In this document: positions 10,480-11,280 of the stretch, piece by piece
Layout: every line of letters starts with the position of its first letter
How positions within the stretch are numbered: the first letter of the stretch is position 1
Source: Flavobacteriales bacterium
GTDB taxonomy: Bacteria > Bacteroidota > Bacteroidia > Flavobacteriales_D > CAJJDF01
Length of the DNA: 17,975 bases
Reading direction: 5' to 3'
NCBI GenBank assembly: GCA_049609665.1
Contig: JBMYYT010000022.1
Coordinates: 1 to 17,975, forward strand
Made by a program: the position numbers and the translations under genes
The notes under the pieces: generated by a model
What the model saw: only the letters and a program-made list of their open reading frames with translations
The model's database searches: none
What the model was told of the DNA's origin: nothing

Positions 10480-11280
10480 TTATTTATTATTGTTTAATAA
10501 CCAGTTAGTTGAGTATTCAATAAAAGCTTCGTTCATAAATGGGAAGACTGTTACATTTGGAATATGATTTACCTCCAATAGATAATTTACTCCGTTTTTG
10601 CCTACCATATAATCCACTCCAATCATTTCAATACCAAAACTTTTGGCAATCTGCTTACTATCCTCCAACAGTTGTTCGTCTATTTCCATTTTCCAAGACC
10701 CTTCGTTGTGTATGGATTTAAGCCATGTGTCTCCTGTGAGTCGCACTTGCCAGTATTTATCTCCAATTAGCATAATTCTTACAGCTTCTCCTTCTATAAA
10801 ATCCTCAACAACCGAAGTCTCAGGGGATATCCAATCGCCAACAAATTTATGTTTTCCTTCTCCACAGTGCCACACTCCCCATTTTGCTACAACTTCCGTA
10901 TCCGAAGAATATTTCTGTTTTCCTAAAGTCATTCCTCTCGATATGCCATCAAATTTGGACACAGCTAAAGATCTTACTAAACCAGGGATTCTTTCTCTCA
11001 AATTCATCATGGCAGTTGCATTGGGCAAACATGGCCCATTCCACAAAGCAAGTAATGTGATAAAATCATAATCCTTTTCGTAAATGCTATGAAACACCAC
11101 CTGATCCACTTTTAAGAACTTACCAGATACCTTCGTGCTTTCAACGGAAAGAATTCCGTGGTTCAACCTTACTTTAGGTAACAAATCGTAGGCAGCTATC
11201 AAATAATCGTTGCTCAAGTTTAATCTTAAAGCTTCTATTTCTTCAGGTTGTAATCCGATAAGTAATATTCTCCGTTTCAT
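10480..11280 (-). CDS. Small ATP-grasp fold enzyme (RimK/GshB-like ligase superfamily); candidate ATP-grasp-type RNA ligase of the repair locus
   Basis: 266 aa. Glycine-rich segment VAKWGVWHCGEGKHKF. C-terminal ATP-grasp signature IGVDYMVGKNGVNYLLEVNHIPNVT, matching the recurrent VLEVN..P motif. Start context is A-rich (aaaaaATGaatcATGaaa). The family call comes from motifs only. Confidence 0.5.
   Translation of the reverse strand: MKRRILLIGLQPEEIEALRLNLSNDYLIAAYDLLPKVRLNHGILSVESTKVSGKFLKVDQVVFHSIYEKDYDFITLLALWNGPCLPNATAMMNLRERIPGLVRSLAVSKFDGISRGMTLGKQKYSSDTEVVAKWGVWHCGEGKHKFVGDWISPETSVVEDFIEGEAVRIMLIGDKYWQVRLTGDTWLKSIHNEGSWKMEIDEQLLEDSKQIAKSFGIEMIGVDYMVGKNGVNYLLEVNHIPNVTVFPFMNEAFIEYSTNWLLNNNK

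Follow-up and report, generated by a model that had tools for sequence, protein, structure and literature searches.

A synapsin- and RimK-like ATP-grasp family recurrently co-oriented with tRNA-array and RNA-repair genes in two phyla

The contig JBMYYT010000022.1 of a metagenome-assembled genome (MAG) labelled Flavobacteriales bacterium, whose entire 17,975 bp form the window analyzed here, carries RNA-repair genes followed by a tRNA array, and between them lies an open reading frame (ORF) at 10480..11280 of the minus strand that starts with ATG and encodes an ATP-grasp protein of 266 amino acids. What might such an enzyme do in an RNA-repair island? The initial annotation proposed an ATP-grasp RNA ligase or, failing that, a RimK-like peptide ligase unrelated to RNA. 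Islands that combine tRNA arrays with RtcB, PrfH and RlaP are thought to restore translation after ribotoxin or antibiotic attack, and their accessory genes are mostly unexplained, so that an ATP-grasp protein that recurs in them and is catalytically intact by sequence suggests peptide or protein modification as part of that response. Our analysis rejects the RNA-ligase interpretation and assigns the protein to a previously unmodelled synapsin/RimK-like family whose genes are recurrently co-oriented with tRNA-array and RNA-repair genes in two phyla; a leader-ORF element upstream of the gene constitutes a separate lead.

The ORF is clearly a real gene, as its product has 733 homologues at E ≤ 1e-3, with top identities of 97% and 81%, and 237 loci with a gene of the family are found in species-representative (GTDB) genomes. 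Its length and its location, flanked by the RlaP nucleotidyltransferase operon and the tRNA array, were correctly described at the outset. The family is small and sharply bounded: 1.84 billion proteins contain 259 clusters of it at 50% identity, and its members are usually 260–290 amino acids long. The protein had been called a minimal ATP-grasp enzyme, and it is indeed compact, yet all three ATP-grasp domains are present, with the N-terminal pre-ATP-grasp domain at residues ~1–118, the central domain at ~120–160 and the C-terminal domain at ~161–266. Similarly, the hallmark motif YLLEVNHIPNVT that was said to end the protein is present, but at residues 233–244, with 22 residues after it. No synapsin-length protein, with a C domain within a longer chain, occurs among the best 150 of the 259 cluster representatives, where the sole long match (P0231) is a spurious galectin-repeat match. 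Domain fusions were discarded as a hint to function, since the longer matches reflect mis-called starts or this spurious repeat. An origin in phages or defence systems was likewise rejected, there being no PADLOC or PHROGs match and no relative in 2.9 million viral contigs.

The AlphaFold2 (AF2) model of the protein (predicted local distance difference test, pLDDT, 92.4; predicted template-modelling score, pTM, 0.89) has the three-domain ATP-grasp fold. In structure comparison the model is closest in three dimensions to the synapsin C domain, with a score of 23.3 for Synapsin I/II and 261–265 of the 266 residues aligned, followed by ArgX (19.6), RimK (19.3), LysX/ArgX (18.8), Ddl (18.5), GshB (17.5) and PPIP5K/ITPK1 (~16). 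Foldseek gave the same order at the top, with template-modelling (TM) scores of 0.78–0.80 for synapsin chains and 0.72 for RimK, and neither an Rnl nor a DNA-ligase nucleotidyltransferase was among the structural matches listed. The modelled structure identifies the protein as an ATP-grasp enzyme of the amino-acid/peptide-ligase type, nearest in shape to synapsin and RimK.

Sequence profiles assign the protein to none of the established families. Its matches in Pfam and NCBIfam are sub-threshold and confined to the C-terminal ATP-grasp region (YheCD 1.5e-3, TTL 2e-3, RimK 0.013, Ddl 0.015), and 24 aligned family members likewise fall below the cut-offs. The RimK family profiles PF08443 and TIGR00768 gave 15.6 bits against a cut-off of 21 and 15.8 bits against 143.4, respectively, and an hhalign comparison with Escherichia coli RimK (E 1.3e-3, probability 18%) covered residues 157–244 only. 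Synapsin_C (PF02750) had no match at E ≤ 1 in any of the 24 members, and pairwise BLASTP of the target against synapsin I 267–415 reached only 1e-4. PDB sequences, queried with either the single protein or the family profile, returned only sub-threshold matches to Ddl, PsnB and the C-terminal part of pyruvate carboxylase. The initial annotation had named a strong match to RimK or GshB profiles as grounds for abandoning the RNA-ligase idea; what these searches yielded are weak matches below threshold, and the family, previously unmodelled, lies in the RimK/LysX/synapsin branch of the ATP-grasp superfamily.

The catalytic residues of this superfamily are all in place. K133, H138, G140, K143, E159, R168, D223, E236 and N238 are 100% conserved in 82 relatives from several phyla, in which D70, C84 and P241 are also invariant. 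By alignment, D223, E236 and N238 correspond to the Mg2+/ATP ligands, which together with K133, K143, E159 and R168, residues that have counterparts in RimK and synapsin, mark the protein as an ATP-grasp; the Lys, Glu and Asn that the initial annotation had singled out for inspection are thus intact. In the region of the Mg ligands, GVDYM...LLEVNHIPNVT of the target aligns with RVDVM...LLEVNTSPGMT of Ddl, and against RimK the residues E159, R168 and W-L-K-S-I-H stand opposite E-x-I, D-I-R and F-R-S-N-L-H.

The resemblance to synapsin raises the possibility that the protein is no enzyme, but a non-catalytic ATP-binding scaffold or regulator that organizes repair factors or tRNAs in response to ATP, as might be imagined for a relative of the synapsin C domain, itself part of an animal vesicle protein without known enzymatic activity. 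The central hairpin VVAKWGVWHCGEGKHK of the target aligns with VVVKMGHAHSGMGKVK of synapsin, a fragment confirmed against 1pk8, so that the two proteins have the K-x-G-x-x-H-x-G-x-G-K motif, within a broader VVxKxGxxHxGxGKxK hairpin, and the E-x-F-I hinge in common (synapsin structures 1pk8, 1i7l, 1auv and 2p0a). Identity is only 14–18%, however, and the target is a stand-alone bacterial protein of 266 amino acids. It keeps the catalytic Asn of E-x-N, which belongs to a Mg/ATP set invariant throughout the family, whereas the aligned synapsin segment reads EVVG and has no Asn; moreover, D70, C84, R95 and R115 in the N-domain are invariant or nearly so in the 82 sequences, as expected of a substrate site. 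The invariance of the full catalytic set favours a working enzyme over a synapsin-like ATP binder, and we regard the scaffold explanation as highly unlikely. A synapsin-like structure with an intact active site may bear on the origin and cryptic enzymology of the synapsins.

Could the enzyme join RNA ends? The term "ATP-grasp RNA ligase" in the RNA-repair literature refers to Rnl1/Rnl2-type ligases, which need 5'-phosphate and 3'-OH ends (PMC7824862). The proposal therefore rests on a confusion of names, the phrase not denoting a RimK-type ATP-grasp, and a tempting mis-annotation can be corrected. Rnl1, Rnl2 and Rnl5 share with the target the use of ATP and the presence in the same kind of RNA-repair islands, but they differ in chemistry, transferring nucleotidyl groups covalently through lysine-AMP, and in their KxDG motif and catalytic module. 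Neither the target nor the 24 members match PF09414, PF09511 or PF01068 (E ≤ 0.1–1), although neighbouring genes in related loci do match Rnl profiles, and membership among the RNA ligases was rejected as neither profile nor fold of an Rnl or DNA ligase was matched. The string KFDG at residues 109–112 varies within the family (NFDG, KFSG, KFGT, RFNT and others), with neither K nor D conserved, and is a chance string. The family is also acidic, with an isoelectric point (pI) of ~5–6 in 22 of the 24 aligned members. Related islands already encode true Rnl proteins beside the target homologues (L022 and L028–L032; PF09414 with a PHA02142 OB domain, and T4 Rnl1-like PF09511) as well as RtcB, and the logic of repair does not need a third ligase. 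Finally, ATP-grasp chemistry requires a carboxylate, which RNA ends do not offer, and this disfavours the RNA-ligase reading further.

The same evidence bears on any direct action on RNA, whether by joining 3'-OH/5'-phosphate ends as an additional ligase or by modifying RNA ends or tRNAs, for instance as a kinase or a nucleoside amidoligase. Some tRNA nucleosides bear carboxylates or amines, and the family recurs beside RlaP, metallophosphoesterase, Tpt1 and DEDD exonuclease genes, which is what one would expect of an RNA-acting enzyme. Set against this, the fold and motifs are those of ligases that form acyl-phosphates rather than of lysine-adenylating nucleotidyltransferases, the ligase profiles, the KFDG string and the pI all speak the other way, and the islands have Rnl and RtcB of their own. 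We know of no ATP-grasp of the RimK/synapsin branch that acts on RNA, and give a direct action on RNA very little chance.

The genomic surroundings of the relatives, surveyed in 80 loci with 10-kb flanks, nonetheless tie the family to RNA, so that of the suggestion of a RimK-like peptide ligase unrelated to RNA the class of chemistry appears about right and the word "unrelated" wrong. RNA-repair or tRNA-array markers were found in 19 of the 80 loci, from Bacteroidota and Planctomycetota, a putative enrichment that is argued from spacing, strand and phylogenetic spread. The markers (tRNA arrays, RlaP, RtcB, Rnl, Tpt1, EndoV and Ro60) are co-oriented with the family gene, 121 of 124 lying on the same strand, and in the 19 loci the nearest one is at a median distance of 128 nt from the ATP-grasp gene. 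As a rough expectation, such markers take up ~1% or less of a genome. The marker-bearing loci are spread over at least five clades of a neighbour-joining tree of the family, and RNA repair with tRNA arrays is the only neighbourhood theme that recurs across lineages, the immediate neighbours falling into 152 Pfam families of which none is dominant or universal. A literature search found no paper linking ATP-grasp enzymes with tRNA arrays.

Several types of arrangement can be distinguished. In Cytophagales/Sphingobacteriales-type loci (L028–L032), arrays of 10–15 tRNAs occur with Rnl, joined by Ro60/TROVE in L029–L032, RtcB in L031–L032, EndoV in L028 and L031, SPFH in L031 and Tpt1 in L032, and in L028 and L031 the family gene sits between tRNA genes. 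A 3.3-kb Cytophagales contig (L036) carries RtcB. The Flavobacterium loci L058, L072, L073 and L080 have tRNA genes, with EndoV and DEDD exonuclease in all except L072, a metallophosphoesterase in L058 and L073, and SPFH in L072; other Bacteroidota (L006, L016, L022) have EndoV and exonuclease, or Rnl. In Planctomycetota, RlaP lies directly downstream of the family gene, as a pair in L044 (21-nt gap) and L046 and singly in L040 (4-nt overlap), a metallophosphoesterase takes this place in L049, the order in L066 (Pirellulales) is RtcB, Tpt1, ATP-grasp, and L045 has Tpt1. In L082, the locus of the 81% orthologue, the ATP-grasp gene is followed by tRNAs Ser-GCU, Cys and Glu in the order of the window, with an unrelated gene upstream.

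From fold, residues and surroundings we consider it probable that the protein is an active ATP-dependent carboxylate-amine ligase of a new RimK/synapsin-like family linked to the response to translation damage. ATP-grasp enzymes in general convert a carboxylate into an acyl-phosphate, which is then attacked by an amine (PMC3249071). By analogy with the superfamily, ATP would bind between the central and C-terminal domains (K133, K143 and the E159-x-F hinge), with Mg2+ on D223/E236/N238; the substrate carboxylate would be phosphorylated to the acyl-phosphate, and an amine, most likely that of an amino acid, would attack it, leaving an amide together with ADP and Pi. That the acceptor is likely a carboxylate of a protein or peptide is suggested by the compact, open build of the enzyme, by its nearest neighbours in structure and by its linkage to further peptide-ligase ATP-grasps; a tail might be added to this acceptor as RimK does on ribosomal protein S6 and LysX on LysW. 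RimK, the S6 poly-glutamate ligase, and LysX/ArgX, which act on the C-terminus of LysW, are similar in size to the target, whose weak profile matches are to RimK-like models, and a common logic is plausible, in which amino acids are attached to the carboxylate of a protein and the activity is connected with translation; F-R-S-N-L-H-x-G-G of RimK is, however, replaced by W-L-K-S-I-H. In Flavobacteriales the leader-ORF element, the ATP-grasp gene and the tRNA array form a co-oriented unit, and in other lineages the gene is found in operons with RlaP, RtcB/Tpt1, Rnl, EndoV or Ro60, which makes a part in responding to damaged translation machinery its most likely role. The family offers a defined candidate for biochemical work.

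Several observations weigh against this assignment. Synapsin, its nearest relative in structure, is not known to catalyse any reaction; RNA-related neighbours are absent from about three quarters of the loci; no gene for a conserved partner, substrate or carrier protein was found among the neighbours in the 80 loci; and the enrichment of RNA-repair neighbours is provisional. In addition, the orthologues of Mucilaginibacter (L010, L012 and L014, ~8787–12180) lie within a cluster for the biosynthesis of aromatic amino acids, flanked by a DAHP synthase/chorismate mutase fusion and EPSP synthase, a context that fits a metabolic role equally well and could be a hint to an amino-acid substrate or mere lineage-specific synteny. 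Within-lineage synteny is also seen with GcvP in Flavobacterium and with an AIRS-family protein in Chloroflexota.

A metabolic role would mean a small-molecule ligase that joins an amino acid to a metabolite or forms a dipeptide, in the manner of Ddl, GshB or L-amino-acid ligases, with the island location resulting from the co-transfer of accessory genes. Besides the Mucilaginibacter cluster, the closeness to Ddl and GshB, the unrelated and often metabolic neighbours at most loci, and an N-domain motif (FHG...D.D..TLL) that to the eye resembles the familiar HG..GEDG of Ddl would suit such an enzyme. Yet the long lid loops of Ddl and GshB appear to be absent (266 amino acids compared with 306–316), the tight, co-oriented RNA-repair neighbours occur in several clades of two phyla, and in L028 and L031 the family gene lies within tRNA arrays. 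We consider a small-molecule ligase unlikely, though it is the alternative we take most seriously.

The linkage to a predicted protein modifier also argues against it. In L073 and L080, two paralogues of the family flank an R2K.3 ATP-grasp (PF14243, 2e-29). The R2K clade (CDC123/R2K.2/R2K.3) consists of ATP-grasps scattered sporadically among bacteria, for which protein modification in conflict contexts has been predicted, and linked ATP-grasps usually carry out successive peptide ligations (PMC4431377). The target is itself no R2K protein, as neither it nor the 24 members match the R2K_2 or R2K_3 profile, and it keeps E-x-N (E-V-N) rather than the ExGD motif of R2K.3. The three ATP-grasp genes stand in a row (L073:7971-10771, with a conserved 105-amino-acid ORF, C119, among them, and L080:8328-10774). 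Behind them come a DEDD exonuclease and an EndoV-like gene, preceded in L073 alone by a metallophosphoesterase, and next in L073, as likewise in L058, stands a MoxR-vWA-beta-propeller ternary system.

How the gene and the array might be controlled is suggested by the leader-ORF element upstream (11519-11712, minus strand), which comprises a -7 box, an ATG, a 37-codon ORF, a spacer of 45–60 nt and an intrinsic terminator. The box, a Bacteroidetes -7 box TATATTTG at 11703..11710, stands 9 nt before the ATG of the leader ORF MNKNRIHIATNPCLQSRINLFVSEYFTKQRMLYVNFE (11580..11693), and the terminator at 11519..11550 consists of a hairpin (11550-11528) and a U9 run, with a folding energy of −12.7 kcal/mol (z −3.3). 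A profile search with the element retrieved six copies and no others, with E-values from 1e-56 to 7e-31: that of the window and those at L082:937-1170, L058:8492-8720, L072:8739-8987, L073:5051-5302 and L080:7132-7373. All six lie in Flavobacteriales-type loci, upstream of and co-oriented with tRNA genes and one or more ATP-grasp genes. In each the box reads TA(T/C)ATTTG, placed 8–9 nt before the ATG in the other five copies, and the ORF has 37–38 codons despite differing peptides. The terminator stems vary in sequence while their pairing is kept, with thin covariation support from six sequences, and hairpins of different sequence occupy the position of the upstream terminator in L082, L072, L073, L080 and L058.

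The pairing pattern and codon content suggest that the element may be a translation-sensing attenuator. When the 3' arm of the terminator was blocked in the computation, the 5' arm paired with ORF nt ~76–94 in L082, L072, L080 and L073; in the window, visual inspection shows the same pairing, between GGAUGCU and AGCAUCC. In the full fold, the ORF segment ~76–94 pairs instead with ORF nt ~12–27, resulting in a trp-like 1:2 / 2:3 / 3:4 layout. Every one of the ten array tRNAs has a cognate codon among the 36 sense codons of the window leader (P ~0.0015 in a codon-usage simulation, a post hoc test), a coverage equalled in 3 of 3,953 36-codon windows from the contig's own genes; the leader of L073 covers 5 of 6 (P 0.09). 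Like trpL, pheL and hisL, the element thus has an intrinsic terminator behind a short ORF, a 3' ORF segment with two possible partners, the 5' portion of the ORF and the 5' arm of the terminator, and leader codons that match the genes downstream, here tRNA genes. Unlike them, it precedes tRNA and ATP-grasp genes rather than amino-acid biosynthesis genes, has no run of a single codon, and is separated from the ATP-grasp gene by a promoter-like site, which calls for caution. Membership in a known RNA family was rejected, as the only Rfam match was a weak one to Phe_leader (26 bits against a threshold of 55), and the element could simply be a small-protein gene. Attenuation would have a parallel in a cyanobacterial tRNA operon that translational stress induces (PMC8421152), and the element, if real, would provide a simple model of how such stress switches on a tRNA array.

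Extending this further, the ATP-grasp gene and the tRNA array might constitute a translation-damage regulon under a tRNA-sampling attenuator, with the ATP-grasp acting on the translation machinery. The leader would stall when any of the array tRNAs is depleted or cleaved, freeing the antiterminator and switching on replacement tRNAs together with the ATP-grasp, which would add amino acids to a ribosomal protein or a translation factor or, as the most radical option, act on a tRNA or aminoacyl-tRNA. We regard this scenario as a whole as rather improbable. If true, the tRNA option would make the protein the first ATP-grasp of the RimK/synapsin branch with an RNA-linked substrate, and, as a catalytically intact bacterial counterpart of the synapsin C domain, it might show which reaction that domain formerly carried out.

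These features also qualify the notion that the gene forms its own transcription unit. The terminators reported on both sides are borne out by sequence and folding, the downstream one, which follows the ATP-grasp stop codon and precedes the first tRNA (10295..10324, minus strand), having a GGCACCU/AGGUGCC stem, an AAAUC loop and a U7 run (10301-10295). Its hairpin (10324-10302) folds with −16.5 kcal/mol (z −4.5) and was missed by a pattern scan; its stem is identical in L082. A candidate promoter at 11305..11336, recognized by resemblance to the consensus, combines a -33-like TTTG (11336-11333), a 19-nt spacer and the -7-like TAACCTTTG (11313-11305) ~25 nt before the ATG; the pair is kept in L082, and TATCTTTG recurs exactly in L072. 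The upstream terminator, however, is part of the leader-ORF element and possibly an attenuator. The spacer from stop codon to first tRNA (10257-10479) is ~80% identical between the window and L082. It has no TAnnTTTG box, nor can any promoter be made out between the ATP-grasp terminator and the array, so that gene and array may be coupled to some extent by read-through. The 5' region of the gene (11281-11527, minus strand) shows 84% DNA identity to L082, compared with 76% for the coding sequence, and part of it recurs in L072 (nhmmer E 2e-7). Blocks such as TGAGAGACAGTCA occur in this region, the promoter-like TTTG...TAACCTTTGCAGAG forms its end, and it may act in regulation or as a structured leader.

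The remaining genes of the window lie on the same strand. From high to low coordinates they are the C-terminal part of RtcB, cut by the contig end (17339-17956; PF01139 at 1e-45), PrfH (16501-17193; TIGR03072 at 1e-69), and, from profile searches, a TPR protein with a highly Lys-rich C-terminal tail (15740-16372) and a metallophosphoesterase (15103-15666), followed by two RlaP-family nucleotidyltransferases (14018-14824 and 12969-14021; PF10127 at 5e-70 and 2e-23), a 395-amino-acid ORFan that ends the RlaP operon (11750-12937), the target, the ten tRNAs and, beyond them, an SPFH/Band-7 protein (6894-8000). The ORFan was rejected as a partner of the ATP-grasp, its sole match among 5.8 billion proteins being itself, with none in Pfam, NCBIfam, PADLOC or PHROGs; it is composed of two tandem repeats of ~170 amino acids. 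The TPR protein adjoins PrfH-RtcB and fits published descriptions of prfH neighbourhoods with TPR and positively charged-tail partners (PMC6514570). An acidic C-terminal tail was not seen on any island protein when read by eye.

The array itself (8871..10256, minus strand) had been described as tRNA-like; the adjacency to the gene is right, but its members are canonical tRNAs, as follows from ten ARAGORN calls (Ser-GCU, Cys, Glu, Tyr, Ser-UGA, Ile-UAU, Leu-UAG, Leu-UAA, Arg-ACG and His) and Rfam scores of 43–67 bits. The first, Ser(GCU) at 10256, begins 223 nt past the ATP-grasp stop codon. Two additional weak tRNA-like Rfam matches (8332-8390 and 8800-8865, minus strand; 35.4 and 29.8 bits) are located between the SPFH gene and tRNA-His; RNA-repair systems are reported to include a tRNA-like RNA associated with SPFH.

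Small recurrent ORFs near the family gene (C119, C68 and C116) provided no clue to function. C68, a conserved 222-amino-acid protein without a Pfam match, adjoins the ATP-grasp gene in tRNA-array islands (L028:1532-2200, L029:10812-11483 and L031:8728-9396), and its motifs LDFD and TRGGFHLL look Prim-Pol-like by eye. In L028, whose record is titled as a Cyanobium MAG, the ATP-grasp and its island group tightly with Emticicia agri (L031) in the family tree, and the contig is probably mis-binned Bacteroidota DNA.

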